Below, piece after piece: positions 6,388-39,852 of a stretch of DNA of 39,852 nucleotides. Both the position numbers and the translations under genes were made by a program. The stretch lies in the IMG/VR virus record IMGVR_UViG_3300037780_000056, positions 1-39,852 of that record. One strand, 5' to 3'. Below the pieces are notes generated by a model, which was given only the letters and a program-made list of their open reading frames with translations, did not search any database and was not told the origin of the DNA. The number at the start of each line of letters is the position of its first letter. The first letter of the stretch is position 1. This stretch comes from a virus (Duplodnaviria > Caudoviricetes).

Positions 6388-6773
6388 TAGACTACTCGCA
6401 CCCTGAATCCATATAAACGATGGCGCGGTCCAGGCGACTGCTCTTTCCAGGTGTTCGGCACCAACTTGACCGTCAGCGGATTGTTAGGCGATCCCTCTGT
6501 ACCGTATGCGTCCAGCGTGAAGTTCTGGCCGCCGATGACGGAATGCCAGAACTCCTCCCAATACGGCCACTCTGATAGGTCGCGCGGATCCGTTAAGACA
6601 TCGTGAAACTTCGCCCGGCCGAGGTATGTTGTCTCGACGTTAGATTCATCAAGGGAGGGTGTGGCGACGACGTTATCGGTATGCTTTGTCGCGAATTGTT
6701 GGATTGCTGGATGCAGCTTTCCGGTGCTTCCACCCACAGTAGATCGATACGGTGTATAAACGATGTAACCCAT
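6387..6773 (-). CDS. Putative distal tail protein
   Basis: Size and position directly after TMP; translationally coupled. Confidence 0.6.
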   Translation of the reverse strand: MGYIVYTPYRSTVGGSTGKLHPAIQQFATKHTDNVVATPSLDESNVETTYLGRAKFHDVLTDPRDLSEWPYWEEFWHSVIGGQNFTLDAYGTEGSPNNPLTVKLVPNTWKEQSPGPRHRLYGFRVRVV

Positions 6774-8824
6774 TAGGCGACACCTCGCGCCGTGGCCAAG
6801 TCGATGCCGTTGCGTGAATCTGCTGGAATCAGTTCGAAGTCTTCCTCGACGATGATGCGGCGCATCTCTGCCAGGTTTTGCTCTGCGTCAGTACCGACGG
6901 TCAAACCATCTGGGAAGTGGAAGTGGACCTCGGTTTTTGCCTGGTTGCTCGAAGTGTTTCCATCAGCCGAGAGGCTGCCAATAGTATCGACTATTGAGTT
7001 GGCCGAACTGGCGGCGCTAGGCAGACCGCTCGTGCCAGACGAGAATCCACCGCCGCCACTTGGATTAGTGATGCTGCCTGGCGAACCTAGCGACGTGCTT
7101 TTAATGGAGGCGATCTGGGCAGCGCCTTTAGCCGCCATGGCGATGGCTGCAGGAATACCGAGCGGAAAACCGCCAGCATTTTTATAGGAGCTAATGATTG
7201 CCGGTGGCAATGTCACCACGGCTTCAGCCAGTGCAAGCGTCTTCTGCAGCTTGAACATCTTTTTACTTTGACCGCCGAACATGTTGGCGATCTCAGTCAA
7301 GCTGCCAAAAAGCTTGGCCCGTCGATCCGAGGCGCTTTTTGCTTCGAGCTTAGATTTCTCGGCCTGGTATCGTTTCTCTGCGCGGATGTTGAGCGCCTGG
7401 AAGCGCTGCTCGGTCAACAAGTTGGCATTGTGCGATTCCTGGAGGAGAGTTTGCTCGGTGGTGAGCTTCTGCTGCAGTAGTTCAAGTTCTGACGCATACG
7501 ACGCGTTTAGGCTCTCGAGCCGTCCCTGGAGGCGTTCCTGTTCGCGTACATCGACGCCGCCTGTATCACCTTCCGCATCCGGAGTGTCGAGTCGTGTCTG
7601 GGCACGCGCTGCGATCGCCTCGGCTTTCGCTTCCGCATTCTGCAGCACCACAGCAAGCCGCTCATCAATGACGGCGCTGGGCAGATCCTCGAGCATCATT
7701 TGATGCAGCTCACCGCGAGCGTTGGTTAATCCGTCAGACAACGCGGTTAGTGTCTGATTAATGGCTTCCGGTGGACGCCACTCGGTATCGAGAGCGCTCT
7801 TTAATGAAGACAAACTCGCCCGGGTCTCATCGGAAATGCCTGGCAAGTGTTGGGCAGCCGAGATGAGACCGCGCATAGGCAAAAGCCAGGTGTCGCGAAT
7901 GACGTTCGCAAATCCGAAAGACGCATCCGTCACCAGCTTGATGCCGGCGACAAAAGCAGTCGAGAAACCATAGCCAGCGACCTCAACGCCTTTGAGGATT
8001 ACCTGGACGCCATGTAAACCGTCCGCAAAAGTACCGACGACACTAGCGCCGATCTTCATGCCTTTCTGAATAACGTCGCTCATTTCGTTTGAGGACATGC
8101 CGGCAGCGGTAAATTGGTCGGCGACCTCCGCAATAATTGGAGCGAGCGCAACAGTTACCTGGTTGCCAATGCCTTCGATCCGCTTGTTAGCCAGCAGCAT
8201 TGCATCGTTGGCGGCTTCAATCTTGGCGGCGTCAGTACGGCTCATAGCAATACCGAGCTCTTTCGCCTGATCGGTAGCGCCGCGCATGGCGTCCTCGCCT
8301 TGTTCGAATGTATTGATCAAACGAACACCAGACCGGCCGAAAATATCAGCAGAAAGCGACGCCTGCAGGGTTTCGTCGTCAAGTTTGCCGATCGCGTCAC
8401 CAATCTGGATGAAGCGCTCGTCCGCAGGTAACTGTGCCAGTTCCTCGACGTTAAGTCCGAGCTGCTTAAAGGCAGGTAGTGCTGTCCCGATACCACGTTG
8501 TGCTTCACCGACACCGCGGTTCATTTTTTCAAGTGATTTAGAGAGGGACTCTGACGACTCACCATTTAGCTCAGTGATTAACTGCAGGCCTGCCAGACCT
8601 TCCGTCGTCGCGCCAACTCGATCGGCGAACTTACCGAGCGCGTCACCACTAGAGAGTGACTTTGCGACCAGCGCACCCAGACCTGCAGCACCGGCTAGTG
8701 CAGCTACCTTTACCTGTGTGGAGTTTACACCGGCACGAACTGCGCCCAGGTTCTTCCGGATAGCCGTAAACGCACGTTTAGTTGCGTCCTTGCCGGTAAT
8801 GATAAATTTATATTCGTCAGCCAT
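6773..8824 (-). CDS. Tail tape measure protein
   Basis: Ala/Gly-rich helical protein, start ITGKDATKRAF, IFGRSG motif, follows the tail chaperone. Confidence 0.92.
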   Translation of the reverse strand: MADEYKFIITGKDATKRAFTAIRKNLGAVRAGVNSTQVKVAALAGAAGLGALVAKSLSSGDALGKFADRVGATTEGLAGLQLITELNGESSESLSKSLEKMNRGVGEAQRGIGTALPAFKQLGLNVEELAQLPADERFIQIGDAIGKLDDETLQASLSADIFGRSGVRLINTFEQGEDAMRGATDQAKELGIAMSRTDAAKIEAANDAMLLANKRIEGIGNQVTVALAPIIAEVADQFTAAGMSSNEMSDVIQKGMKIGASVVGTFADGLHGVQVILKGVEVAGYGFSTAFVAGIKLVTDASFGFANVIRDTWLLPMRGLISAAQHLPGISDETRASLSSLKSALDTEWRPPEAINQTLTALSDGLTNARGELHQMMLEDLPSAVIDERLAVVLQNAEAKAEAIAARAQTRLDTPDAEGDTGGVDVREQERLQGRLESLNASYASELELLQQKLTTEQTLLQESHNANLLTEQRFQALNIRAEKRYQAEKSKLEAKSASDRRAKLFGSLTEIANMFGGQSKKMFKLQKTLALAEAVVTLPPAIISSYKNAGGFPLGIPAAIAMAAKGAAQIASIKSTSLGSPGSITNPSGGGGFSSGTSGLPSAASSANSIVDTIGSLSADGNTSSNQAKTEVHFHFPDGLTVGTDAEQNLAEMRRIIVEEDFELIPADSRNGIDLATARGVA

Positions 8825-15753: not shown

Positions 15754-17718
15754 TTAGCGGTAGCGATCCATCCAGCCGCCATCCCGATTCCGTGTAACAC
15801 CACGGCGAGACTTATTTTTGGTGGCTGGCTTTTCGCGATCCGACTGCGGGGCTCGCAGTTCGTTTAGAATCGACTGGACGTTCATTTTCAATATCTCAAA
15901 GGCCGCGACGGCATAAACGTAACAGTCAAGCGCCTCGACCCTGGGACGCTGCGCCTTGTACCTGCGAACCGGCCGCCCCGATTTAAATTCTGTAACCTTC
16001 TTTTCAGCAGTTAGCTGCTCGAAGTACTCCTCGTCAGCGGAGTAGGTTTCTTCATCCGTCGATACGGGGAAGTGGACATAGCCAGGACCCGGCTCTTGGA
16101 TCTTTAAGCAGCCATAGATCAGATCTTTGGCTTCAGTGGTACCGATTGAAAACAATCGCACCCGTTCTGAGTTGTTTCTCGAGGGCCTGCTGGTTAATGG
16201 CGCTTCCAACTGGTTCGAACCTTTCAGGGCCAACCAGTTGCGACCCTGGTTACGCTTGCAAAACTTGTAAGCCATGCTGGTGTAGTGGCCACCCGTATCC
16301 AGGCCGCCGCCGCGGACACGCAGCATAGCGCCGGATTCGTGTTCCCAACTCGTTGTCGTTAGATATTCCTCGACACGATTCCAGAGTTCCGGCCGACCTG
16401 GGTCGCCATAAAATATCTCATGCGCTATCAGCCATGACTCGCGAGCGACACCAAAGCCCCAGACACTGACTTCAATACGATCATCTTGCGTATCGCCACC
16501 CCAGAGAAGGAGTCCACACTTCGCCGGCACCTTGCCATTCGGATAGTGCTCTCGTCTCATATATAACTGGTGTGGCTCTACTCTGTCCGATTCTTCTTCC
16601 CAGACTTCGCCCAGGCTGGTGTTTACCCATACCTTAAGCTTGGTGGGGTCTTTCTTTGCGTTGAGGAAGTCCTCGACAATCTCCCGCCAGTTTTTCCCAC
16701 CTGGCGAGCAAAATGCCGCCCACATGTAGTAGGTCACCGACTTTGGAGCAGAAACCAACTCACCGTGCGGACCGTAGAATGACTCTCCGTCCAGGGTCGT
16801 CATTCCGTTGTCTGAAATCCACACTGCGTTTCGATCCATTTCAGGCATCGAATCATTGTCTATCAACGCACCGCAGTGCTCACACAAATATTGCGCGGTC
16901 TCGGGATCGTCGTTTGTGTACTTAATGCCAAAGTTCGCATCTGGACCACCCCATCTTAGGAGCTGCTTCTCACTGCAGTGAGGACAGGGAAAGTATCTCC
17001 TAAAGTGCTCGTCGGCATCGTTCGCCGCCTTACTGATTTGGCAAGTGCCAGCCTCTTTGGGTGTTGAGCCTCGTATTGATTTTGGAAACGAGGATCCAGA
17101 CATTCGGACATCGCCGAGAGTTACCGCGTCACCCTCGCGCTCGATATCTGGATCAAAGCTAGAGAGCTCATCATAAATACCAAAGTCGACGGACTTCTCT
17201 CGAAAGTTCTTCGCTGACTTGCCGCCCTTTAAGAACAACTGGCGGCTATTGCTGAAAGCCTTGTAATCAAGCGTGTTGAATTTACTTTTCTTGTCGATGT
17301 ACGGAAAAATATTCCGCATGCACCGTACATCCCTGATCATCGGCTCCACATGTTGTTTAGTGAAGTCTGACCTCGCATCGTCGGTTGGCTGCCACACGAT
17401 GCCGTTGCGTTTTTTGTGTTCGATTGAGTAGGCAATGAATGCCAATATCATTTTGGTATAGCCAACTCGGGCTGACTTAACCAGGTTTACGACTCTGATG
17501 TCGTCGTTCCCCATCGAGTTGAGTGGAGCAACCTGGTACGGCATCGTCTCCCAATCGCCTTCAACATAAGAAGACTCCGCCGACAAGTAGAAATGCTTAT
17601 TCGCCCACTCCGTCACGCTCATCGGTTCGGGAGTGCTTAGGGCTGATTTTAAGGCTCGGCTGATCGCCTCCTTTAGATTATTTCGCTGTCTCGGAGTAAT
17701 GCTCCTCAATGAATTCAT
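15754..17718 (-). CDS. Terminase large subunit (GpA family)
   Basis: Walker A VKSARVGYTK, YDELS, GSTPK, CPHC/CEHC, DTQDDR, EALDC; start placed at MNSLRS. Confidence 0.96.
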   Translation of the reverse strand: MNSLRSITPRQRNNLKEAISRALKSALSTPEPMSVTEWANKHFYLSAESSYVEGDWETMPYQVAPLNSMGNDDIRVVNLVKSARVGYTKMILAFIAYSIEHKKRNGIVWQPTDDARSDFTKQHVEPMIRDVRCMRNIFPYIDKKSKFNTLDYKAFSNSRQLFLKGGKSAKNFREKSVDFGIYDELSSFDPDIEREGDAVTLGDVRMSGSSFPKSIRGSTPKEAGTCQISKAANDADEHFRRYFPCPHCSEKQLLRWGGPDANFGIKYTNDDPETAQYLCEHCGALIDNDSMPEMDRNAVWISDNGMTTLDGESFYGPHGELVSAPKSVTYYMWAAFCSPGGKNWREIVEDFLNAKKDPTKLKVWVNTSLGEVWEEESDRVEPHQLYMRREHYPNGKVPAKCGLLLWGGDTQDDRIEVSVWGFGVARESWLIAHEIFYGDPGRPELWNRVEEYLTTTSWEHESGAMLRVRGGGLDTGGHYTSMAYKFCKRNQGRNWLALKGSNQLEAPLTSRPSRNNSERVRLFSIGTTEAKDLIYGCLKIQEPGPGYVHFPVSTDEETYSADEEYFEQLTAEKKVTEFKSGRPVRRYKAQRPRVEALDCYVYAVAAFEILKMNVQSILNELRAPQSDREKPATKNKSRRGVTRNRDGGWMDRYR

Positions 17719-18232
17719 CGAGTCGATCGGCAACACCGACGCATGAGTTCCTTGCCTTGGCAATTTCTTTCTTAACCTCGTTCAACTGAGTTGCGCTCAT
17801 CTTTGGCATGATTCGCTTCATCTTGGCGGGTAGGGATTCGAGTATTGAGGCCATCTCAACACCTACTCGTGAAAAAACATGCTCGGCGGCCGTGATTGGG
17901 AAGAGATTTCCCTTTGCTAAGTCGTTTGTTAGCTCTTGACCGATTCTCTTTTCGCGATCGAGCCTCGCTTTTTCTAACAGAGGATTAATTTTCCCGTTCT
18001 CTTCGCCATCATCCTCTGTTTCCAGCTCGCTAATCTTTGCCTGCAGCTGAGCCGTTTTGTGGTTGATGCGATTCGCCAGGACGTCTTCAACGGTAAAAAA
18101 AGCCTCTCGGCCAATTCTAGCGATTGGTTGCACTTTCCATTTATCAAATGCGGCACCTGATATCCCTAACGAGGCCGCCATGTCTTTACGGTTTAACCAA
18201 TGTTTCTCTGGCGTTGGAGCCTTTTTTGACAT
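17678..18232 (-). CDS. Terminase small subunit (Nu1-like)
   Basis: N-terminal wHTH (LNRKDMAASLGIS..AFDKW), coiled coil, SILESLP; downstream of cos. Confidence 0.9.
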   Translation of the reverse strand: MSKKAPTPEKHWLNRKDMAASLGISGAAFDKWKVQPIARIGREAFFTVEDVLANRINHKTAQLQAKISELETEDDGEENGKINPLLEKARLDREKRIGQELTNDLAKGNLFPITAAEHVFSRVGVEMASILESLPAKMKRIMPKMSATQLNEVKKEIAKARNSCVGVADRLDEFIEEHYSETAK

Positions 18233-19453: not shown

Positions 19454-19528
19454 TGGTAGCAGGGGCAGGATTTGAACCTGCGTAATGGCGGTTATGAGCC
19501 GCCTGACTTACCAGTTGTCTACCCTGCA
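19454..19528 (-). tRNA. Phage tRNA with CAU anticodon (Met, initiator-like)
   Basis: TGCAGGGTAGACAACTGGTAAGTCAGGCGGCTCATAACCGCCATTACGCAGGTTCAAATCCTGCCCCTGCTACCA folds into a cloverleaf with encoded CCA. Confidence 0.9.
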
Positions 19529-24002: not shown

Positions 24003-24584
24003 TTATCGAATTGACACGAGACCGTTCATATCCTCGTCCGACTTGGCTGTGTCTAGCGAATCACCTTCAGACCATCCGTAAATTTCTCCGGTGATCAGGC
24101 GATAGGTTTTTGCGGTCGCGAAGTTCGTCACGTGGATTTCAACTTTTTCCAAACCGTAACGTGAGAAATCTACCGAGTCCCTAACGTGCGACTGCATATG
24201 CCCAGGAGTGATCTCATTAGCGTTACGACAGACAAGGTACTCCGACATCGCGGCCTGTAATTCAGCCTGCAGCGTGGCCTCAGCGTGATGGAGAGTCCTA
24301 TACAGTAACTCGAGGTTACTGATCTCGTATGTGACCTGCGCCGATACTGTTATGACCTTGCCGTCCCTGGTTGTGTTGGTCTGGGCGTGTGTGGCGGTTA
24401 CTCTGCGTCGAATCGACTGCTTATAGATAACATCCAGCACCGGCAGCTTTACGTGGACACCTGCGTTAAGAACTTTGATGTGCTTGCCAAGTCGGACACG
24501 AATCACCTGCTCCCAGGGTGCAACGACGACCCACCAAATCAGCAGCTGTCGGAAGTTGTTATAAATCTCGCGAAGAATATCCAT
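24003..24584 (-). CDS. SPFH/Band-7 domain protein
   Basis: VVAPWEQVIRVRLGK...GVHVKLP, QTNTTRDGKVITV. Confidence 0.85.
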   Translation of the reverse strand: MDILREIYNNFRQLLIWWVVVAPWEQVIRVRLGKHIKVLNAGVHVKLPVLDVIYKQSIRRRVTATHAQTNTTRDGKVITVSAQVTYEISNLELLYRTLHHAEATLQAELQAAMSEYLVCRNANEITPGHMQSHVRDSVDFSRYGLEKVEIHVTNFATAKTYRLITGEIYGWSEGDSLDTAKSDEDMNGLVSIR

Positions 24585-24983: not shown

Positions 24984-25513
24984 TTAAAGTTTACCCGTTG
25001 AGGTTTGTATTTTTTGCCGGCGAACCTTTTAGCCAGGCTCACGTCGGCCCCCCGTAACCGCTCAAGCTCTTCTGCCTGCTGGTTTCGCAAGCGAATTGCC
25101 ATGTCGACTATGAACTGAGCGCCATGGACAGCGCTTCCTCTAGCGAGTCGATTAAGCTGCTCGTCAATCAACAACGGATCCAAGCGGCGAGCGTGTCGCC
25201 TATCGATGCGGCGATCGACTAGAGTGTTGTAAACAGACTTTGCGGCCGTTAGAAGCAACTGGTCATCGTCCACTTTTTTGCACGAGACGTGTAAGACCTT
25301 GCAGTCTTTAAGTAGAACATCGCTGATCTGCAGGTAGGTCATATCGTGGATGGCCCGCATTAGCCATACAGCTACCGACTGAGCATTAGCAGCTGGGCCT
25401 TCGTTCCGAGTCCGCGCCTCGCTGATCCTGAGCTCAACACCGAAGTGACTTTCTGCCTCTATGAGAATCTCGCTTGGAGGGGGCAGCACAGGTAACGCGG
25501 GAAGGGTAGTCAT
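24980..25513 (-). CDS. Protein with DnaA C-terminal-like HTH
   Basis: AQSVAVWLMR...MTYLQISDVLLKDCKVLHVSCKKV resembles DnaA domain IV. Confidence 0.6.
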   Translation of the reverse strand: MTTLPALPVLPPPSEILIEAESHFGVELRISEARTRNEGPAANAQSVAVWLMRAIHDMTYLQISDVLLKDCKVLHVSCKKVDDDQLLLTAAKSVYNTLVDRRIDRRHARRLDPLLIDEQLNRLARGSAVHGAQFIVDMAIRLRNQQAEELERLRGADVSLAKRFAGKKYKPQRVNFK

Positions 25514-25992
25514 TATCTGATCCTGTACGTGAGCGTGATCGCGTCGAAGCCATGGTTAACGTCATTTGTGTTCGCGTTGCTCCAGTGGCGCCAGGTTATG
25601 GAGTAGGGCCCCCTCCGGTATCCGATGCCCAGGTTAAAACTCAGTGCGGATCCGAGGACGTCGCTCACCTCGTTGACTGACAGGCCGCCAGACACCTCAA
25701 AGCCGGCTGGGAGGGGATATCGATATCCGGCGTTAATGAAATGCTGGTTATCAACATATCCGTCGTCACGGCGTTTCACGTTCTCCAGGTGGTCGAGGGA
25801 TACATACCAGCGCTCCCAGGAGTACTCGAGGTGGTAGCCATGGCCACCGATATCGCCGCCCTCTAGATCGGTGTCCAGGTAGAACGGCTGGTTGTAACCG
25901 ACCGCGATCTCGGCGGTAGCTGGGTTACCCAGCACCAATACGGCGATGGCTGTCATGAGTGTGAGCAATTGGCTTACAGGTTTTCTAGGCAT
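25513..25992 (-). CDS. pagL: PagL-like outer-membrane lipid A 3-O-deacylase (acyloxyacyl hydrolase family)
   Basis: Signal peptide, amphipathic beta strands, C-terminal RHWSNANTNDVNHGFD. Confidence 0.75.
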   Translation of the reverse strand: MPRKPVSQLLTLMTAIAVLVLGNPATAEIAVGYNQPFYLDTDLEGGDIGGHGYHLEYSWERWYVSLDHLENVKRRDDGYVDNQHFINAGYRYPLPAGFEVSGGLSVNEVSDVLGSALSFNLGIGYRRGPYSITWRHWSNANTNDVNHGFDAITLTYRIR

Positions 25993-26347
25993 TGTCTTCT
26001 CCGTTGCCAGGTCTAAGTGGGATAACTTGTGGCTTGTGGTCGCTACGCGGCTTCGGCCGAGAGTCGTTTGCGTCCTGCTTCCCACCCGGGTCTTTTGGAT
26101 CCAGGTGGGAAGCCTCTACCGTGAGGCAGCGAGTGATTCGGTTTTGAGGTGGCAAATGCTTGATGCATTCGTGGCAGATCTGGGCACCGCTCGTGGCGAT
26201 GGACACCCATCGACGATGGCTGCAGCGGCAGTACTCACCGGTCGATTGTCTGCGCCTGGCATCAAACTGACGGTAACGCTCGGCGATCAAGCAGCCGAGG
26301 ATCCCCATCAACGCGCACAGAGTCACAACGTCCAGGGCGGCACTCAT
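25985..26347 (-). CDS. Hypothetical protein, N-terminal TM and Cys/His motif
   Basis: Coupled ORF; CRCSH...CHEC. Confidence 0.6.
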   Translation of the reverse strand: MSAALDVVTLCALMGILGCLIAERYRQFDARRRQSTGEYCRCSHRRWVSIATSGAQICHECIKHLPPQNRITRCLTVEASHLDPKDPGGKQDANDSRPKPRSDHKPQVIPLRPGNGEDNA

Positions 26348-26574: not shown

Positions 26575-27080
26575 TGGTTCCCCTCGTTTTCGTTAGTGGA
26601 TTTCCTGCGAGCAGGGCAGGTAGCAAAGTGGGACTTGTGTCGTAGCGGGTCGTACATCACGCCGTCGCGCTTGTCGTCCATGGCTTGCCCTGAGTAATCA
26701 ACAGGCATCGACTTGCCCTTGCTGGTCTTAAGAAAAACGAGCGGGGCGTTGCATTGGTCGCAGCGGTTTTTGCTGCTAACGGGTCTCTCCGGTTCCGATC
26801 GCCGCGCCGGCTCTGGTGTTGGTTCAGGCTGGATATCCGCATCGGATATCTCGATGGCCTGCGCTGGTTCGACCTGGTTCCATTCGGCTTCGAGCATTCG
26901 GTCAAGTTTGCGATGGCAGGCAGCGCGTTCGACCGGGGTGTCTCCTGGGAGATCCAGGCTGTTCACGATCCGAGCGATGGGGAACGTGTAGCCGTCTGGT
27001 TGCTTGATATCCGCACCGCCGGCCATGATTCGGCGTTGCAGGAGCAGGTAGCACTTGCCTCGAACTTCTGCGCGGTTCAT
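26571..27080 (-). CDS. Hypothetical protein with C-terminal CxxC...HxxxC motif
   Basis: ATGA coupling to the replication gene; CDQCNAPLVFLKT...HKSHFATC. Confidence 0.7.
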   Translation of the reverse strand: MNRAEVRGKCYLLLQRRIMAGGADIKQPDGYTFPIARIVNSLDLPGDTPVERAACHRKLDRMLEAEWNQVEPAQAIEISDADIQPEPTPEPARRSEPERPVSSKNRCDQCNAPLVFLKTSKGKSMPVDYSGQAMDDKRDGVMYDPLRHKSHFATCPARRKSTNENEGNQ

Positions 27081-27970
27081 GAGGCTTCTCCTTGTCGCTG
27101 AACCTGGTTCTGGAATTTGAGAACCTGGTCGCTCCAGTGAGCTATGAGGGTTTGGTTTTCGGTCGCTCTGAATTCGCAAAGCATCCGTCGTGCATGAGCT
27201 AGTCTTTGCTCTGGCGAGTCTTCGTGCGTTGGTGATTCAAACTTCCGCCTGATGGCCTGGGGGCGATTCTGGGTGTTGGGTGAATCAAGATGGCGAGCAT
27301 CGATTTTGTGTTGAGCCCTGGCCCATTCGATGAAGTACTCGTCCCAGATTGCCTCCGGTTTTTTCTTCGCCTTGACCATGAACATCGGGATCCAGTGATC
27401 AGGGATTTTGAAGTTTTGTCCCCAAAGCGCTTTAAGCGCATCGATGACGCCGGGTGGCGGATGCCACCGTCTGGAAGAGGTTTGTAAAAGGTCTGTTCTT
27501 TGCCCGTGACCGATTCGGTCACCGTATAGTGACCGATTCGGTAACCGTTTAGTGACCGATTCGGTCACCGTTTTATCATCTACCGTGACCGGTTCGGTCA
27601 CCGTTGTTTGGCTATCTACAGTGACTGATTCGGTCACCGTTGTTTCTTCTACGGTGACTGATTCGGTCACCGTTTCAGGTATCAGGATCCGGTACTCACT
27701 TGGCCTTGAAAAACCACCGTTGCCCACTTTTTCGATCCAGCCTAGTTTGACAAGTTGGGTAGTGACTCTGGATATCACTTCCGCTTTGTAAGAGCCGCCA
27801 CAGCGTTCGATTATCTTGGATCTCCGAACCCTTACAGTGTCATCATCCCGATCACGGAACGAGCAAATCACCGCTAGCACTCGCAGCTGCATTTTCGAAA
27901 GCCTGTTATCGGCGATCGCGGCTAACGGCACCATGGCGAACCTGGCGTCAATTACAGACTCATGGCTCAT
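27077..27970 (-). CDS. Replication initiator (lambda O-like, N-terminal wHTH)
   Basis: FAMVP...LSKMQLRVL...LVKLGWIE...YRI, followed by internal iterons. Confidence 0.85.
   Translation of the reverse strand: MSHESVIDARFAMVPLAAIADNRLSKMQLRVLAVICSFRDRDDDTVRVRRSKIIERCGGSYKAEVISRVTTQLVKLGWIEKVGNGGFSRPSEYRILIPETVTESVTVEETTVTESVTVDSQTTVTEPVTVDDKTVTESVTKRLPNRSLYGDRIGHGQRTDLLQTSSRRWHPPPGVIDALKALWGQNFKIPDHWIPMFMVKAKKKPEAIWDEYFIEWARAQHKIDARHLDSPNTQNRPQAIRRKFESPTHEDSPEQRLAHARRMLCEFRATENQTLIAHWSDQVLKFQNQVQRQGEAS
27506..27671. repeat. Replication origin: six palindromic iterons GTGACYGATTCGGTCACC
   Basis: Copies start at 27506, 27529, 27552, 27585, 27621, 27654. Confidence 0.88.
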
Positions 27971-28178
27971 AGGGCGCCTCCAGGTCGTTGAGTAGCTGCT
28001 GCAGGTTGATGCAGTCTGGGAGTAGTTCCTCCCGGGTCGTCCGAACTACGACGGAGCCGCGCTTGAATAGCGCGTGTGGGTCGCAATGCGTTGTGGTGAC
28101 GACAAATACTTCTGTGGTGGTTTTTACGGTTCTGGAGGCCTGTGCGGCGCGCTCCAGCACCAAAGTGCGATGATGCAT
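27960..28178 (-). CDS. Small C4-controlled ORF (icd/kil/ant position)
   Basis: RBS AAAGGA overlaps the antisense target; overlaps the replication gene start. Confidence 0.6.
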   Translation of the reverse strand: MHHRTLVLERAAQASRTVKTTTEVFVVTTTHCDPHALFKRGSVVVRTTREELLPDCINLQQLLNDLEAPYEP

Positions 28179-28228
28179 TGGTGTGGTCCTTTACAGTTTT
28201 AGTTGCTGACCACCAGTTAGTAGCTGGT

Positions 28229-28311
28229 GGCCGGGTCTCAACTAGAGCCTGTAAAGAAGCTCCGGGCCTATTCCCCTTGCGGGTATTGTATTGACGCCTC
28301 TCAACCCGGCC
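28229..28311 (-). ncRNA. C4/CI-type antisense RNA
   Basis: GGCCGGGTTGAGA...CCCGCAAGGG...CTTTACAGGCTCTAGTTGAGACCCGGCC; CTTTACAG and TCTAGTTG complement sites both upstream and downstream. Confidence 0.8.
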
Positions 28312-28340
28312 TTTCGGCTGGCTTCGCCAAATTTCAGGCG

Positions 28341-28392
28341 AAAAAAAACCGCAAGGCTTTCGGGTGCGGAAGACCGCTTTACAAGTTCTAGT
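28341..28392 (-). promoter_or_regulatory. a1/b1 target sites plus terminator hairpin (c4-a1b1-like leader)
   Basis: ACTAGAA..TGTAAAG followed by CCGCA-CCCGAAAGCCT-TGCGGTTTTTTTT. Confidence 0.7.
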
Positions 28393-28439
28393 GCGATCTA
28401 TATTACCCGAGCTTGCGCAAAGTGCAACAATCCTCATAT

Positions 28440-29111
28440 CTATTCGCCATCCCTGATTAGATCGATTAAAGATGGCGGGAACAGGCAACCAGCAATATCG
28501 AATGCGTAGTCACTTGGCGATTTGTTGTGCAGGAACTTCTTTAGATGGTGATCCCGTGCCATTTTGCTCGACATGACATCGTCAACGCACAAGTGACACG
28601 CCGATTTATAGGTTCTCTTCTCACGATGGCAGAACCGTATGAATGTATTCCACCTTTTCCTGTGGGTTTTCTTCGGCGTAACTGCCAACTTGGTTAAATA
28701 CTCAACTTCGAAGCGATCGGAAGGAGGTCGATTTTCTAAGGTGAGCGCTCCCCGCTTGACCCTAAAAAAGTCTCTTAGCAGTCCATACTCGAACTCACCA
28801 TTGTTCGATTGACCCTTTCTAAAATCGTCTACATGAGTTGTACCTTTAGCTTGATGGCAAACGTTACATAAGATTTGAAGGTTTTCGAACGAAAGGCAGT
28901 GCTCTGGGTAAAGATACCGCGGGCGGATGTGATCAACGTGAAGTGAAATACCTTCGCCGGGTACAGCACCACAAAGTTGGCAGCGACTTCCCAGGTGTTT
29001 AAGCGCCAAGTATCTTGTTTCTCTCCACTGCTGGGTTTTATAAAAGACTTCAGCTCTCATGTTCGCAAAGACATGGAGCTGCTCGACCGGGATAACTAAC
29101 CTACGATTCAT
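28440..29111 (-). CDS. HNH endonuclease
   Basis: CQLCG...LHVDHIRPR...NLQILCNVCHQAK. Confidence 0.9.
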   Translation of the reverse strand: MNRRLVIPVEQLHVFANMRAEVFYKTQQWRETRYLALKHLGSRCQLCGAVPGEGISLHVDHIRPRYLYPEHCLSFENLQILCNVCHQAKGTTHVDDFRKGQSNNGEFEYGLLRDFFRVKRGALTLENRPPSDRFEVEYLTKLAVTPKKTHRKRWNTFIRFCHREKRTYKSACHLCVDDVMSSKMARDHHLKKFLHNKSPSDYAFDIAGCLFPPSLIDLIRDGE

Positions 29112-29225
29112 TCGGGGAACCTTCGTTATAGGAGGGTGCCCCGGCGGAGCAAACCGGAGCACCCGATCCCCTAACCAAAGGGCAAGGGTGGCTAGGAGAA
29201 GACAAACTGGTTTCTACCTGGCTCC

Positions 29226-29600
29226 TCATTGGCTAACCTCAGAGGAGTGAACAGATGCGGTTACTTTTAATTGATGCCGACAACCTGGGCAAAGTACTTC
29301 AAAAGATAGACAACGCAGAGTTTCTGCCCAGGATTGGCGAGACGATTGATCTTCACCCGGATTACTATCAGGTCCTGGGTGTTCATCATTCGATAAGCCG
29401 GAATCGGGAGACTTGGCACATGATTCAGTGCCGCGAGTTGGATGTCGCGAAACGTCCACCGGTTCCAACTCTGGTGAAATGAGCCCGAAGTCTTCCTCGA
29501 CGATGATGCGTCGCATCTCGTAGAGGTTTGACTCAACGTCCGTGCCGAATCTTTCACTCATCGGGCATATGAAGTCAGCGAGCCGTTTGCGCCAGCTCAT
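29226..29600 (-). CDS. 124-aa early protein containing a tape-measure C-terminus-like peptide
   Basis: ATGA coupling to the upstream gene; FGTDVESNLYEMRRIIVEEDFGLIS vs TMP VGTDAEQNLAEMRRIIVEEDFELIP. Confidence 0.6.
   Translation of the reverse strand: MSWRKRLADFICPMSERFGTDVESNLYEMRRIIVEEDFGLISPELEPVDVSRHPTRGTESCAKSPDSGLSNDEHPGPDSNPGEDQSSRQSWAETLRCLSFEVLCPGCRHQLKVTASVHSSEVSQ
29255..29482 (+). CDS. 75-aa hypothetical protein, antisense and nested within 29226-29600
   Basis: GAGGAG RBS 7 nt before ATG; protein-like LPRIGETI...YQVLGVHH. Confidence 0.55.
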   Translation: MRLLLIDADNLGKVLQKIDNAEFLPRIGETIDLHPDYYQVLGVHHSISRNRETWHMIQCRELDVAKRPPVPTLVK

Positions 29601-30061
29601 TCTGCTAACCCCGCTGCCTTCTGCACATCGAAGATCAACTCGTCCAGGAGGGCACCAGCCGTTTGTGCATGTTCCGTTGACTCCTCGGACATTAGCGCCT
29701 GTGAAATGCCTATCCAGCGGTTTAACGCTGTCTGGAGAGGTGTCTCGCCAGTTAGGCTGCATACGAGTTCATCGACACGGGCACCAGGGGAAGGGGCAGC
29801 CTCTTCGAGATCTGTTTTCCCGTCGTCGGGAATTTGGATGTCGGGATCGAAGGCCGGGTTAGTTACAACCACGCTGTTGTTGCCAGGCTGTCCACCCTCG
29901 GCTTCGATTACATTCTTGCGATAGTAGTAATAGTTCGACGGAGAGACCGCGAGGTTCTTGCAGGCCTGCTCGATGCTGCAGTTAAACTGTTCTTTGTTCA
30001 CCAGTACGGCATCGACGAGTTCACGCATATCGTTGATGTCGGTTAGTCGTTTCTCGCTCAC
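29597..30061 (-). CDS. HTH-containing hypothetical protein
   Basis: SIEQACKNLAVSPSNYYYYRK; coupled to neighbours. Confidence 0.7.
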   Translation of the reverse strand: MSEKRLTDINDMRELVDAVLVNKEQFNCSIEQACKNLAVSPSNYYYYRKNVIEAEGGQPGNNSVVVTNPAFDPDIQIPDDGKTDLEEAAPSPGARVDELVCSLTGETPLQTALNRWIGISQALMSEESTEHAQTAGALLDELIFDVQKAAGLAE

Positions 30062-30390
30062 GCAGTCACCTCCTCGGGTGTGGATTTGAGTTCGTCGATT
30101 AATTGTTGGTAGGACGTGCCCGTTACCTGGTTATCTGATTGCTCGGGGCGACGGCGCATGTTTCGGAAAGGGATGAGGCCAACTACACCATGTTGATGCG
30201 TTATGACTCGATAAAGCGGGTAGTGGTAAGACTTGATCTTCTCGTAGGCAACGCGGAGGCCGGGGCGCTCCGGAATTGCATCACCCTCATGGTACGGCCC
30301 TTCTGTTATCTGGATATCCACCCATCCTTGGATAGAGTTAGCCTGCCAGCCGTCCTCACCTGGCACCGGTAAACGATCAGTCATGGTCAT
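30058..30390 (-). CDS. Hypothetical protein
   Basis: Coupled ORF; start likely MTMTD. Confidence 0.65.
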   Translation of the reverse strand: MTMTDRLPVPGEDGWQANSIQGWVDIQITEGPYHEGDAIPERPGLRVAYEKIKSYHYPLYRVITHQHGVVGLIPFRNMRRRPEQSDNQVTGTSYQQLIDELKSTPEEVTA

Positions 30391-30862
30391 TCCCCCAGGT
30401 TGTGAATGGTTCCTCGAGTAACTCTTCCCGTCGGCCACGACCATTTCGGCCACTGCGCCCTAGTCGATACGTTGTCTGGCTGCGAACCTTGGATGGTTTA
30501 GAGCGTGTTCGTACTAAGCTGTGATCCAGCACCAAGGTGCCAAGTGTTAGCGCGATCATTAAATAAATGGCTGACAGCGATGCCATGCCGCGTTGCTTGA
30601 TCGACTCGCGCAGGATGCCGAGCGTAAACGCGTTGCGAACCAGGTGCGCGCGGTTGCGGGAATTGGTTTTGGTCATCGCGCCAGTGATGTAATCGTTGAC
30701 TGTGCGCGGTGCGATACCCATGGCGACCGCCGTGTCCTCAGAGGTGTAACCCTCCGCAATGTAGTACAGCGATTCTGTTTGCCTGGCTGACAGTGTGCCT
30801 GGCTCACCGACCTCGATATCGGTGCCCCGTAAAAACTGACGGTTTTTTTCAGCTCTCATCAC
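30377..30862 (-). CDS. LuxR-type HTH regulator with a hydrophobic segment (cII position)
   Basis: LSARQTESLYYIAEGYTSEDTAVAMGIAPRTV...NRAHLV; TM-like LSAIYLMIALTLGTLVL. Confidence 0.82.
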   Translation of the reverse strand: MMRAEKNRQFLRGTDIEVGEPGTLSARQTESLYYIAEGYTSEDTAVAMGIAPRTVNDYITGAMTKTNSRNRAHLVRNAFTLGILRESIKQRGMASLSAIYLMIALTLGTLVLDHSLVRTRSKPSKVRSQTTYRLGRSGRNGRGRREELLEEPFTTWGNDHD

Positions 30863-31071
30863 GCTACCTTGTGCTCTGGTAATTGCGAGGAGTCCGGACA
30901 GGTGTCGCGTAGCAGATCAATCAGTTTTGCGCCTCGGGTCCAGGTTGTGTCCTGGTTCTGCCCGGATCGTAAGGCTTCGATTGTTGTTCTCTTGATCTCG
31001 GTGGCATCGGCGATCTGCTGGATGGAATACCCCGCCGCCATGATTTCTTTAATGACAAGTGTCCAATTCAT
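30859..31071 (-). CDS. cro: Cro-like repressor
   Basis: 70-aa HTH divergent from cI. Confidence 0.75.
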   Translation of the reverse strand: MNWTLVIKEIMAAGYSIQQIADATEIKRTTIEALRSGQNQDTTWTRGAKLIDLLRDTCPDSSQLPEHKVA

Positions 31072-31084
31072 GGCTGCACTTTAT

Positions 31085-31102
31085 TGTCATATTAATGCGA
31101 TT
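31085..31102. promoter_or_regulatory. Candidate operator (OR)
   Basis: TGTCATATTAATGCGATT, 15/18 identical to 31902-31919. Confidence 0.6.
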
Positions 31103-31184
31103 ACAAGTCAGTCAATCAGTTTTTATGCAAGCAGTGGGAAGTACAATGCGCCGAATAAGATCGCACTACTCAGGAAGCACGCAA

Positions 31185-31847
31185 ATGGACTCCGCAGATA
31201 TCATCAAGGAGCTTATGGAGCGCGAGGGACTAAAGCTCATTGACCTGTCCCGCAAGAGTGGGATCGGGCACTCCACAATATCCAGCATACTAAAGCGCTC
31301 AAACAAAGAGCCCAGGGATTCAACGCTTGAGCCGATTGCAAAGGTGTTTGGCGTGTCGAAGGCTCAGTTACGAGGTTATGAGCCGATACCTGGATTAACT
31401 AACACGGCTGTCAGCGATCGGCCAATGCTATTCCCGCTTATACCGCCTGGCTCGATTGATAGCTGGCTAGCTGGATCCCTTGATACCCGTGGCCTAGAGT
31501 ACGTTAAGTCGGCTTTCCCCAGATCAGCCAGGACGTTCGTCTATGAGGCGCAAGACGATGCTGTTGCTAGTTACGTCCCCAGAGGCGGCAGAGTGTATGT
31601 GGATCCTGATACAGACTTCCATGCTATCGAAGACCGACCGGTCTTGATTGCCCTGATCAGGGTGGATGGTCGCTACTCCTTGCGGACTGAGGTGGATGAC
31701 ATGGGGCGTTATGCTTACTCGTCTGAGAGCTCGGCCTATCGCGCGTTAACGGCTGAAGAGTGCGAGGTTGTCGGCTACGTTGTCGGCATGCCAGAGCAGA
31801 ACTTCACCAACCCAGACTTGTTGGCTCGGCTCAACAAGAGGCGATGA
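31185..31847 (+). CDS. cI: CI-like repressor: XRE HTH plus degenerate S24-like C-terminal domain
   Basis: LIDLSRKSGIGHSTISSIL..EPR.STLEPIAKVFGVS; RVYVDPD and VVGYVV; start at MDSAD. Confidence 0.82.
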   Translation: MDSADIIKELMEREGLKLIDLSRKSGIGHSTISSILKRSNKEPRDSTLEPIAKVFGVSKAQLRGYEPIPGLTNTAVSDRPMLFPLIPPGSIDSWLAGSLDTRGLEYVKSAFPRSARTFVYEAQDDAVASYVPRGGRVYVDPDTDFHAIEDRPVLIALIRVDGRYSLRTEVDDMGRYAYSSESSAYRALTAEECEVVGYVVGMPEQNFTNPDLLARLNKRR

Positions 31848-31895
31848 TCCTCGTCGGTTAAACAGCCAAACCGGCTTCGATTTGTCATTTTCGTG

Positions 31896-31925
31896 TTGAC
31901 ATGTCATTTAAATGTGATTTATTGT
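31896..31925 (+). promoter_or_regulatory. pL-like promoter with operator in the spacer
   Basis: TTGACA-TGTCATTTAAATGTGATT-TATTGT. Confidence 0.65.
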
Positions 31926-31956
31926 CACTTATGTTTCACGTGGACATGTCTAAATC

Positions 31957-32370
31957 ATGCGGCTAAGCCAAGAACACCCTCGAGAGCACAGCTCGTTTCA
32001 TATGATGAGACAGCGGTGCTACAACCCAAAAAATGAAAAATTCCAATATTACGGCGGTAAAGGGATTCGAGTTTGCTTCCGCTGGGAACGGTTCGAGAAC
32101 TTTCTAGTTGACATGGGTCCTCGTCCGCCGGGGATGTCCCTGGACCGAATAGATCCCAATGGCCACTATGAGCCACGCAACTGCAGATGGGCGACCCATA
32201 AACAGCAAGTAAGAAATTCACTTACCTACAAGCTGAATGACGACGCCGTCATGGCAATCAAAGTCATAAAGGCAGAGTTAGGTTTTACCGATGCCCGTAT
32301 TGCAGAGATTTTCTGTGTGGCGCGCTCAACTGTGACCAACATCCTAAATGGAAAGAGGCGAGCGTCATGA
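31957..32370 (+). CDS. HNH-like endonuclease with C-terminal HTH
   Basis: YYGGKGIRVC.RW..FENFL.DMGPRP...SLDRID.NG.YEP.NCRWAT. Confidence 0.85.
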   Translation: MRLSQEHPREHSSFHMMRQRCYNPKNEKFQYYGGKGIRVCFRWERFENFLVDMGPRPPGMSLDRIDPNGHYEPRNCRWATHKQQVRNSLTYKLNDDAVMAIKVIKAELGFTDARIAEIFCVARSTVTNILNGKRRAS

Positions 32371-32873
32371 GCGGACCTGCCACGAAACTTAAAAAGACCC
32401 CTATATCGCTTGATGAACTGGCCAAGCACACCGACCGACCCTTCTGCGACTTCCATAATGCGGTAGGCGCCATCCTCTACCAGACCGAACACCAGACCGC
32501 CTGGATCGAGATTCATGACGACGGGTACTTTTGCTCGGTGAATGATCTGGCATGCAAGCATGCCGACCTGCAGACCGTTGAGGAGTTCATGAAAATTCGA
32601 TGTTTCCCGGAAGTGATTTGGGCAGAGGCACTGGTGGAGTTGGAGACGATCAGTTCATGGCGCAACGCTACGCCGGCAGCCAGGAAGGCGTTCGGCGAAC
32701 TATTTATCGACGGGCGTTTTTCAGGGCCGGCCGTTAGGGAGATTGCGATGGGCTGGCTGTACTTCAACGCCGGCTGGTTGATGTGCGACATAGAGACCGA
32801 GCGCAATACGCAGCAGGTTTACGAAATCTTACAACGAGAGGGCAAGTTAAATGATCACGCGGTTATATCTTAG
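32367..32873 (+). CDS. Hypothetical protein
   Basis: ATGA-coupled ORF in the early operon. Confidence 0.7.
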   Translation: MSGPATKLKKTPISLDELAKHTDRPFCDFHNAVGAILYQTEHQTAWIEIHDDGYFCSVNDLACKHADLQTVEEFMKIRCFPEVIWAEALVELETISSWRNATPAARKAFGELFIDGRFSGPAVREIAMGWLYFNAGWLMCDIETERNTQQVYEILQREGKLNDHAVIS

Positions 32874-33144
32874 ATACGTTGTCGGGCAACTCATCGAGGG
32901 CGGTGAGTTTAATGGTGAGCAGTACCAGACAGAACTCATACCCGACACCCGGGTCGGCATTGAACACGCCGTTAGGCGATTTGATGAAGAGGAGGACAAC
33001 TTTGGCGGTCCGCAATTAGAGCGCCAGGTTTGGAATCCTAACTACATCGTCGAGGGTGGTTGCCGCATCGGCGAGTACGAAACCATCCAACAATGGCACG
33101 ACGGCGAGTGGCGCGACGAAGGTTACCTCGGGCTCGCCAGTTAA
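32851..33144 (+). CDS. Hypothetical acidic protein
   Basis: Overlapping coupled ORF with GAGG RBS. Confidence 0.65.
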   Translation: MITRLYLRYVVGQLIEGGEFNGEQYQTELIPDTRVGIEHAVRRFDEEEDNFGGPQLERQVWNPNYIVEGGCRIGEYETIQQWHDGEWRDEGYLGLAS

Positions 33145-37784: not shown

Positions 37785-38072
37785 ATGTCAGACGATATAG
37801 AGCCAATATATGTCCCCCTCCTATCAGCTTGCGGATTTGTGCCTTCTCCGAGCAACAAGGATCCAGTCGAGTGTGTGGTTCGCATACCGATCGAAGGACC
37901 AGCAGATCTGCTCTGCTTTACTGAGGACTGTCGCGGCTGGATGCACGTGGACTTTCCACCTGGTGAGAGCATCGTCTCCGGTGTTACGTGTGATCGTAAC
38001 TGTGGCTGGTCTTATTCGTTTAAGCTGGTACCGCTTCCGACTCTGCCAGAACATTCTCAACCTGGCGTTTAA
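37785..38072 (+). CDS. Hypothetical protein
   Basis: Starts 5 nt after int; AAGGA upstream. Confidence 0.45.
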   Translation: MSDDIEPIYVPLLSACGFVPSPSNKDPVECVVRIPIEGPADLLCFTEDCRGWMHVDFPPGESIVSGVTCDRNCGWSYSFKLVPLPTLPEHSQPGV

Positions 38073-38451
38073 CGCCAAGCGGATCCGCGACTCGAGCCAG
38101 GTCGACAGAACTAATTCCCCGGCCAGTTACAACGACGGTGCCATACCCGAAGATCCTACCCATGATCGATTGCCGGATCTCGACGGTCTCGATCGATGAG
38201 AGCTTCATCTCCTCGGTCGATCGACTGATAAATCCAGTTTTAAGGATCACACGGCGTGATGTGACACCCATCTCGGTCGTCAGGATCTTGACCAGGTACC
38301 AGAGTGCGACGATAAGGGTGATGCCAAGCGTGAGCGGTGCCAGGAGAAGCCACACCCAAAAGGCGAGCCATTCGAACCAGTGGAGTTTAAACAGGCCCCG
38401 GATCTGTTCATTGGTGGATAGAGATTCCTCGATATAGCTCAACGTGACCAC
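38020..38451 (-). CDS. Bacterial PH-domain (bPH_2-like) membrane protein, moron next to att
   Basis: Two TMs, then VTSRRVILKTGFISR..EE...IETVEIRQSIMGRIFGYGTV; start may be TTG at 38442. Confidence 0.85.
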   Translation of the reverse strand: MVTLSYIEESLSTNEQIRGLFKLHWFEWLAFWVWLLLAPLTLGITLIVALWYLVKILTTEMGVTSRRVILKTGFISRSTEEMKLSSIETVEIRQSIMGRIFGYGTVVVTGRGISSVDLARVADPLGVKRQVENVLAESEAVPA

Positions 38452-38565: not shown

Positions 38566-38692
38566 GATTTTGAGGGAAAATAGCTACCGAGACCCCGAAT
38601 AGCTACCGGTCGCGCCTAGCGACCCCTGTTAGACCCTTTAAAATGGCACGCCCAGAGAGATTCGAACTCCCGACACCCAGGTTCGAAGCCTG
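38566..38692. repeat. Right att direct repeat
   Basis: Identical to 1-127. Confidence 0.97.
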
Positions 38693-38720
38693 GTGCTCTA
38701 TCCAGCTGAGCTATGGGCGC
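38644..38720 (-). tRNA. tRNA-Arg(UCG), intact integration target
   Basis: GCGCCCATAGCTCAGCTGGATAGAGCACCAGGCTTCGAACCTGGGTGTCGGGAGTTCGAATCTCTCTGGGCGTGCCA, 77 nt, loop CTTCGAA. Confidence 0.95.
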
Positions 38721-38930
38721 AGTCTAAAACTGTCGATTGATGGCCAATTGTACTTCAAAAGTCGGCACTACGTGCCGATGGTGCTCTCCTCGTGCGCGAG
38801 CCCGGCCATCGGAGCTATGGGCGCAGTCTAAAACTGTCAATTGATGGCCAATTGTACTTCAAAAATGTCGGCACTACGTGCCGATGGTGCTCTCCTCGTG
38901 CGCGAGCCCGGCCATCGGAGCTATGGGCGC
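38708..38930. repeat. Tandem ~105-bp repeat (2 units plus 13 bp) containing the tRNA 5' end and hairpins
   Basis: GAGCTATGGGCGC at 38708, 38812, 38918 with near-identical intervening units. Confidence 0.9.
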
Positions 38931-39087
38931 ATGACAACACTACTGTTTCGTGACGGAGTATAACGCAAAGTGTCCGCGCAGGGTGAACTCGGTCAGCGAA
39001 AGATGGCGAATTGTGCCCAGATTCCATAAACATTTCCAGAGATTCGTTATGATCACCAGGTGAGCTTCTCCCCGTGGTGCGTAATCC

Positions 39088-39438
39088 GTGTCAATCGCCA
39101 GCTTTTTTCAGCAACATCATCGTACACATCTTAGAATGTATGAGATTGAGTTTGAGTATCGCAATGGCCGAGGTGCTCATGAACTGACGTTGGCTTATGT
39201 GGTTGCGACGAACGAGACCAAAGCCTTGCTAGAACTAAAGACGGACATTCAGAGGCATCAATGTGAATTGCTCAAGGTTCGAGGCACCACCAGGCGTATT
39301 GAGCCTGAGAATTTTGATGCTTACATCCACAAACAATGGCCGGCACACATCAACACCCTCGATGCACGTAAAATGATCCGCGATCACGACCATCACGTTT
39401 TTGTCCTGCCGCCGATTGAGTTACTTGGGCCCGCCTAA
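39088..39438 (+). CDS. Host hypothetical protein
   Basis: Protein-like ORF converging on the next gene; start uncertain. Confidence 0.55.
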   Translation: MSIASFFQQHHRTHLRMYEIEFEYRNGRGAHELTLAYVVATNETKALLELKTDIQRHQCELLKVRGTTRRIEPENFDAYIHKQWPAHINTLDARKMIRDHDHHVFVLPPIELLGPA

Positions 39439-39852
39439 AAAATTCCGTTTGGCGTGACAGTGAAGCCTTTGAAGTAATTCACTTCTGTGTCATTGGGAAT
39501 CACATGGCAGTGCGCACGATATTCGCTTACCGCGCTGCCTGTCTGATAAACCGAGACCATTAGCAACACCACGAATAAATCTCGCGGTCGGTCGTAACGG
39601 GTGGAGTGTTGGTCGATGATGGATTGCACAACATCGCCCTGGAAGTTCAGCGCTGCCTGCTTTTTACAAAGCGTGCTGGCCATAAAGAGGTTGCTGATAG
39701 TGCGAGCATTGCCCACGTCATCCACCAAGGTGGCTTTGGATGAAATGGGATTTAAGCTTGATACCCACCAGCCAAAAATGGCCAGAGTGACAACTAAAAT
39801 GGCAATGAAAGCCCGGCTGGCGTTTACGTCAGCTGCTTGTTGCGTCTTGCCA
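39435..39852 (-). CDS. Host membrane-anchored protein, 5' end outside the window
   Basis: Frame is open to the window edge and includes TM AFIAILVVTLAIFGWW. Confidence 0.55.
   Translation of the reverse strand, partial: GKTQQAADVNASRAFIAILVVTLAIFGWWVSSLNPISSKATLVDDVGNARTISNLFMASTLCKKQAALNFQGDVVQSIIDQHSTRYDRPRDLFVVLLMVSVYQTGSAVSEYRAHCHVIPNDTEVNYFKGFTVTPNGIF

Follow-up and report, generated by a model that had tools for sequence, protein, structure and literature searches.

Blockers of tail assembly that are directed at the tape measure protein (TMP), Tab and Rta, have been described only recently. Tab, from Pseudomonas phage JBD26, acts via the TMP's C-terminal part and is countered by a gene of the lytic operon (anti-Tab), and the accessible text of its report records no simple escape mutants (PMC10884400). 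Rta, an 80-aa protein of the satellite PLE11, blocks tail assembly via the TMP and, in the available portion of the preprint, is escaped by substitution in the TMP or by an alternative TMP, with no decoy mentioned (bioRxiv 10.1101/2025.01.29.635557). Avs18 is a TMP sensor, described in the available extract as modelled on a central 130-residue segment (PMC13581612), and the host defence SNIPE is associated with TMPs, as reviewed in the part accessible (PMC13434031). According to the accessible extracts of two further papers, the anti-DSR2 protein DSAD1 mimics the tail tube protein and occupies the same pocket (PMC10973363), and residues 818-842 of lambda gpH form a three-helix coiled coil in the tail-tip lumen (PMC10721106). 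No published TMP-derived mimic or decoy was found in the literature searched, from which subscription journals were mostly absent, in agreement with the original prediction on this DNA, which had known of no comparable system, and two 2026 reviews and a meeting report name no TMP decoy in their accessible parts (PMC13728456, PMC13434031, PMC12908700).

The window, meaning the whole stretch of 39,852 nucleotides that was analysed, is a lambdoid temperate phage. Naming with PHROGs and Pfam on 60 ORFs identified head, tail, terminase (15754-18232), replication, cro-like, repressor and integrase genes. Bases 1-127 are repeated at 38566-38692 (repeat search), public runs carry the phage as a contig of 38,596 bases, and a tRNA-Arg gene (38644-38720) overlaps the terminal repeat; the window is therefore likely a prophage with a short host flank. 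Repeats of 59-69 nt at 38702-38970 begin inside the tRNA-Arg gene, and the region 38566-39852, with the terminal repeat, the tRNA-Arg gene and these repeats, is likely the host integration site. The runs carrying the window are labelled as pond metagenome, and none of the public runs listed as containing it is an RNA run. More distant relatives of the TMP come from genomes that are mostly gammaproteobacterial, Microbulbifer and Pseudomonadales among them, which makes a gammaproteobacterium the likely host. Also present are a phage tRNA-Met gene (19454-19528), an SPFH/Band 7 protein (24003-24584), a PagL-like membrane protein (25513-26085), a bacterial PH-domain protein (38020-38451) and six 23-nt palindromic repeats inside the replication gene (27506-27676), which have a similar array in the relative G002 and are likely the replication origin. 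All three covering runs differ from the window at 31120-31124 by one substitution and one extra base, so that the window probably mis-frames the repressor ORF (31059-31847) at its 5' end.

The TMP gene lies on the minus strand at 6773-8824 (683 aa; phrog_9483, E 6.5e-107), and a segment close to its 3' end (6819-6897, minus strand) recurs on the same strand at 29470-29548, matching without gaps at 63 of 79 nt (repeat search and self-blastn, E 4.4e-13). Besides the terminal repeat, the tRNA-end repeats and the origin repeats, this is the only long match in a self-search of the window, and the duplication is probably non-random. In the minus frame, TMP codons 644-668 of 683 correspond to codons 19-43 of an ORF at 29226-29600. 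The 16 nt differences fall at 4 first, 4 second and 8 third codon positions, with 5 codons changed synonymously and 6 with a changed residue, leaving 19 of 25 amino acids identical. Likeness is highest in a core of 33/34 identical nt (32/33 over the 11 codons at 29487-29519, minus strand, by in-frame comparison), and the longest exact run is 25 nt. The copy is predicted to form an amphipathic helix followed by a short hydrophobic stretch. The match, its core, the reading frame with both quoted peptides and the third-position differences had all been proposed by the original prediction and were confirmed. Its description of the segment as a copy of the TMP C-terminus stood for residues 644-668; the last 15 residues are lacking, so the copy is not the terminus itself. 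No counterpart of these 15 codons was found beside the copy (0/14 aa in register; gapped score at chance level), and the missing end includes S670 and R671, two residues that are the same in 12 of 12 TMPs of the family. Compared with a docking end, the ORF lacks the terminal SR motif of family TMPs and continues for 81 residues after the copy. This missing end had escaped the original prediction, as had the antisense overlap with the opposite-strand gene P0001 and the absence of the copy from G002. Codons 8-18 of the ORF (29547-29579, minus strand), aligned with TMP 633-643, agree at 15/33 nt and 2/11 aa, a level reached by 82 of 8768 in-frame windows, and may be an older, decayed extension of the copy.

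An assembly chimera was ruled out: positions 27000-33000 lie within one contig in each of the runs X1 and X2, either of which could be where the window came from, run X3 has 29227-29803 in one piece with no alternative letters, and the copy is unchanged in the three runs. A diversity-generating retroelement (TR/VR) was rejected, with only 2 or 5 of the 16 mismatches at A, depending on the strand, and no reverse transcriptase was found among the 60 ORFs scanned. A CRISPR spacer or mini-array was likewise rejected, as flanking repeats are absent and the likeness fades gradually into the flanks, and an Rfam scan returned two matches, both at chance level.

The ORF (29226-29600, minus strand; 124 aa) carries the copy in its N-terminal third, and an ATGA overlap couples it to its neighbour on either side. 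Its start lies on the ATGA closing the upstream gene P0002 (29597-30061, minus strand; 154 aa), which bears out its description as a coupled early ORF, and at its other end a further ATGA couples it to the next ORF. The remainder of the accessory slot (28440-29229, minus strand) holds a 42-codon ORF (29101-29229) with a non-coding score in the codon model, and an HNH endonuclease gene (28440-29111, named with PHROGs/Pfam), whose second half is unnamed and gives weak matches to PtuB and PDC-M01B models. About two-thirds of the copy-bearing ORF (codons 40-115) is antisense to the P0001 gene (29255-29482, plus strand; 75 aa), whose final codons, with the stop, fall within the copied stretch. In the TMP frame, the base creating this stop changes the codon of Leu665 silently, and both frames are thereby intact at the junction.

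P0001 is better supported as a gene than the minus-strand ORF. Its ribosome-binding site is the stronger of the two (-10.8 vs -6.8 kcal/mol), and it is present in a protein collection from which the ORF is absent in three start variants. A promoter search for P0001, undertaken because tab is characterised by a constitutive promoter of its own, gave no consensus site at 9/12 and one 8/12 site at 28988. P0001 is predicted to adopt a small beta fold; at TM 0.66-0.75, its Atlas model (pLDDT 0.76) is similar to DUF6464- and KOW-like clusters, short of what would name a family, and Foldseek with the low-confidence P0001 model returned nothing at E <= 0.001. No relatives were found of P0001 (0 of 401 genomes included) or of P0002, nor full-length relatives of the ORF in the protein and sequence collections searched, and PADLOC gave no match for the ORF, P0001 or P0020, a second carrier of the segment described below. 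In a codon model trained on 30 phage genes, the copy scores like a real gene (0.345 bits/codon), and ORF codons 1-18 (-0.20) and 45-124 (-0.18) score like wrong frames. The ATGA overlaps at its two ends, of a kind used at 9 of the 15 listed junctions of the operon, speak for translation of the ORF, and so does its frame, which is open across the whole antisense overlap, an outcome reached by 8 of 303 real-gene windows and by 1716 of 20000 synonymous recodings of P0001. Atlas recognition of the ORF (1824) is below the 2300 reached by known families, and AlphaFold2 without an alignment gave a pLDDT of 46, with a helix at residues 23-37. Taken on sequence features, the ORF is likely translated into a product whose N-terminus is short and ordered and whose tail is junk and probably unstructured. 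At residues 101-115, overlapping the start of P0001, it has a CxxC motif that weakly matches a zinc ribbon (E 0.009), probably by chance.

The locus shares several features with Tab/anti-Tab. A small opposite-strand gene, here P0001, lies tail-to-tail with a small gene of the lytic operon with overlapping ends (tab and atab are convergent in JBD26, overlapping by 47 nt; layout from record L117), the ORF is coupled like anti-Tab to its upstream gene, and there too, as far as the accessible text goes, the TMP C-terminal region is at the centre of the conflict. In contrast, tab lies between the small terminase gene and the large one, whereas the P0001/ORF pair lies at 29.2-29.6 kb in the early operon. 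No local alignment of P0001 with Tab was found at E <= 100, and the known anti-Tab shows no likeness to its TMP by alignment; nor is anti-Tab described as a TMP copy in the accessible text (PMC10884400), whereas the ORF carries one. As with DSAD1, there is likeness to a phage structural protein, 19 of the 25 aligned residues being those of the phage's own TMP, and it would serve to occupy a defence protein, but the likeness here is a direct DNA duplicate of that TMP, whereas the model for DSAD1 is the tail tube protein. By analogy, the C-terminal coiled coil of gpH is the likely structural counterpart of the copied segment, although the copy is free-standing and without the terminal residues; the TMP end of the window had no sequence match among solved chains. 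The segment on which Avs18 is modelled is central, and the copied part here is near the C-terminus.

The explanation that we favour, which is possible if somewhat short of an even chance, is that the copy is a decoy that would soak up a TMP-binding inhibitor of tail assembly before the TMP is made; Rta is the kind of inhibitor that such a decoy would counter. Within the cro-side operon, the ORF follows the cro-like gene and precedes the replication gene. By lambdoid gene order, its product would appear early in the lytic phase, ahead of the TMP, and be absent from the lysogen, a timing that suits a decoy and not the exclusion of rivals. Ribosomes ending P0002 would restart at 29600 and make the 124-aa product only in lytic growth, and its residues 19-43 would display the TMP helix surface. 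Without the terminal motif and strand, the peptide would not enter the tail tip of its own phage, and the changes at A647, E664 and P667 likewise would prevent it from jamming its own tips. The peptide could then titrate a Tab- or Rta-like inhibitor supplied by the host, by a rival element or, less likely, by P0001, and occasional recombination with the TMP gene may refresh the core, by which the decoy would track its own TMP. The narrower version, in which P0001 is itself the TMP-binding blocker, protecting the lysogen, and its antidote a piece of TMP kept in the lytic operon and matched by recombination, is improbable and makes up part of the chance given to the decoy. A predicted complex between P0001 and the copy (residues 10-50, 9-row alignment) scored 0.02 (mark 0.32) and counts neither for nor against it. 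If the decoy explanation holds, the copy would work like DSAD1 or anti-Tab and be a member of neither.

A functionless relic, which we consider rather unlikely, is the next explanation. The TMP fragment would have been captured by illegitimate recombination, or a formerly complete P0020-like gene would have been cut by the arrival of the plus-strand gene, the remainder of the ORF being read-through of antisense DNA without a role and the identical core a product of neutral recombination. The missing terminal motif, the non-coding codon scores outside the copy and a plus-strand gene that has the stronger ribosome-binding site and is the one called all point this way, and the start of the ORF may be inherited from an earlier gene, since ATGA overlaps are common in the operon (9 of the 15 junctions listed). 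The preserved protein sequence is harder to reconcile with a relic. In neutral substitution simulations, 19 of 25 residues kept with no stop after 16 nt changes had a p of 0.0017-0.008, and a p of 0.004 was obtained for 34 nt in a row carrying no more than one change; these values are inflated because the segment limits were picked by similarity. Amino-acid conservation above the neutral model suggests protein-level constraint on the copy, and the same signal would be expected of a copy inherited from an unsampled donor TMP. The hydrophobic face is retained (moment 1.23 vs 1.16), and both frames have stayed intact where P0001 ends at the silent Leu665 change.

Divergence of the copy bears on its age. 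Five of its residues are found in none of the six close TMPs, where each TMP compared with the other five has 1-3 such residues, and by this comparison the copy is not a fresh piece of TMP and has moved away from TMP constraints. It is nearest to the phage's own TMP (59/75 nt and 19/25 aa, compared with 44-50 nt and 12-17 aa for five relatives). At third positions, 1/11 core codons and 7/14 flank codons differ from this TMP (Fisher 0.038, with boundaries set post hoc; p 0.07 on residue-keeping codons only), against 6-7/11 in the core and 6-10/14 in the flanks for five real TMPs. The simplest account suggested by these counts is an old copy with a core recently replaced from the phage's own TMP, which fits a decoy tracking its TMP and also neutral recombination. 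In their third positions the flanks have thus diverged as far as the TMPs of separate phages have, yet the 79 nt carry no indel or stop, which again speaks against a relic.

A second case of the segment is a further argument against a relic. A profile of six TMP ends plus the copy, searched against 1.84 billion representative proteins, returned four proteins, three of them TMPs or TMP ends and the fourth P0020 (68 aa, E 2e-9), in which an unrelated N-terminus precedes a 28-residue TMP-like segment and a short unrelated tail. The 28 residues share 17-23 identities with the six close TMPs and include the terminal motif. Reading P0020 as a shifted-frame TMP was ruled out, as its N-terminus matches the shifted TMP frame no better than shuffles do (6/18 vs shuffle mean 6.8). 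Its variant P0023 is on four contigs of up to 20,846 bp from several sources; the locus of P0020 itself was not found in the genome and contig collections scanned. With P0020 besides the copy in the window, the small TMP family has thus on at least two occasions released this segment to stand as a free module, P0020 being known from the protein alone.

Among closer relatives the copy is a singleton, in keeping with a relic. The last 204 residues of the TMP are matched by 15 proteins, five of them close, and the only close relative readable over the early region, G002 (TMP 67% identical), is syntenic on both sides of the slot, has other genes within it and lacks the copy. A profile of 20 TMP ends found the copy in the window at E 8e-5 and gave five weak extra matches (E 0.01-0.29) in 28 other records; of the three matches identified, one is a NadA-like protein, one the end of a 379-aa frame and one an ORF following cro in Microbulbifer. 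When each record was searched with its own TMP end, the window scored 90 (reached by 0/100 shuffles) and 14 others at most 55, and no convincing second copy was found in these 14 TMP/record pairs, most of them taken irrespective of whether the early region is whole. Self-search of up to 10 kb around 91 TMP loci, a range too short for an early region 22 kb away, gave weak and unconvincing extra hits at 6 of 74 loci after 17 with the TMP off the end were dropped. Motif scans returned four viral and eight metagenome loci, made up of TMP ends and three unrelated frames. None of three candidates from a word search among shorter proteins held up, and this search is not sensitive, since it missed P0020.

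The small Microbulbifer ORFs after cro, which are faced by small opposite-strand genes, were tried as further TMP-end copies and rejected. One (G007:C15) is identical to its own TMP at 12/25 residues with a profile score of 27.2, and a host NadA-like protein scored higher (28.8). Without the first-found member the score drops to 21.2 (shuffles reach 17.9), a profile of the other three members retrieved no TMP end, and the self-search score was equalled by 1 of 100 shuffles, among 14 records tried. These ORFs (L177:1501-2204, L179:1501-1842, L180, L181, L182 and L184, all Microbulbifer prophages) form a family of 40-170 aa directly after cro, with a strong ribosome-binding site and usually tail-to-tail with a small opposite-strand gene (57-61 aa at four loci), and look like a conserved two-gene module. 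In L217 and L218 (G457 and G459), a Clp-type head protease frame matches the TMP-end profile with its C-terminal part (E 3e-4), at 6.6-6.7 kb upstream of the TMP, either as further reuse of the motif or as a chance helix match. Two TMPs of the same family occur within one provirus record (G009:C1, 804-971 and 40713-40880), and three in one Microbulbifer genome (G007, contigs 15, 22 and 27).

Improbable, too, is a modulator or poison of assembly, a helix that would join TMP ends or the tail-tip lumen and delay the phage's own tails or spoil those of co-infecting relatives. The coiled coil of gpH lines up with it in its similar near-terminal position in the lambda tip lumen, and the amphipathic face is preserved in the copy. 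A cro-side ORF is, however, likely silent in the lysogen that needs exclusion and active at the time when it would endanger the phage's own tails, its best match is the phage's own TMP, and the peptide lacks the SR motif and has a change at the invariant Ala647. Control at the RNA level, in which a read-through transcript of the plus-strand gene, antisense to TMP mRNA of the phage or a relative, would damp late tail expression, is most improbable: the plus-strand copy can pair with TMP mRNA (computed -106 kcal/mol, with the 25-nt exact run) and the core is kept even at silent sites, but just 1 of 16 mismatches would form a G-U pair, the 8/12 site at 28988 falls short of a consensus promoter, no Rfam match rises above chance and the changes are shaped by codons.

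Of the three roles that the original prediction had proposed, the decoy fits best, and poisoning of rival tail tips fits poorly, given the closeness to the phage's own TMP, the lytic operon and the absent terminal motif. Its broader idea of a TMP mimic gains from the protein-level constraint and from P0020, and loses from the wrong-frame scores of the ORF outside the copy. Absence of the segment from relatives, which it had named as evidence to the contrary, was found in part, in that one close relative with the whole early region lacks it.

Overall, the locus holds a real duplication and, so far as can be read from sequence, a plausible TMP decoy in the form of a truncated singleton with an overlapping gene. 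If the copy is a decoy, duplication of the target helix would counter the inhibitor at low cost and without any change to the essential TMP gene, and the copy would mark the attacked surface of the TMP and could serve as bait for its inhibitors. Should P0001 prove to be the blocker, the P0001/copy cassette would be the first defence with an antidote copied from its target.
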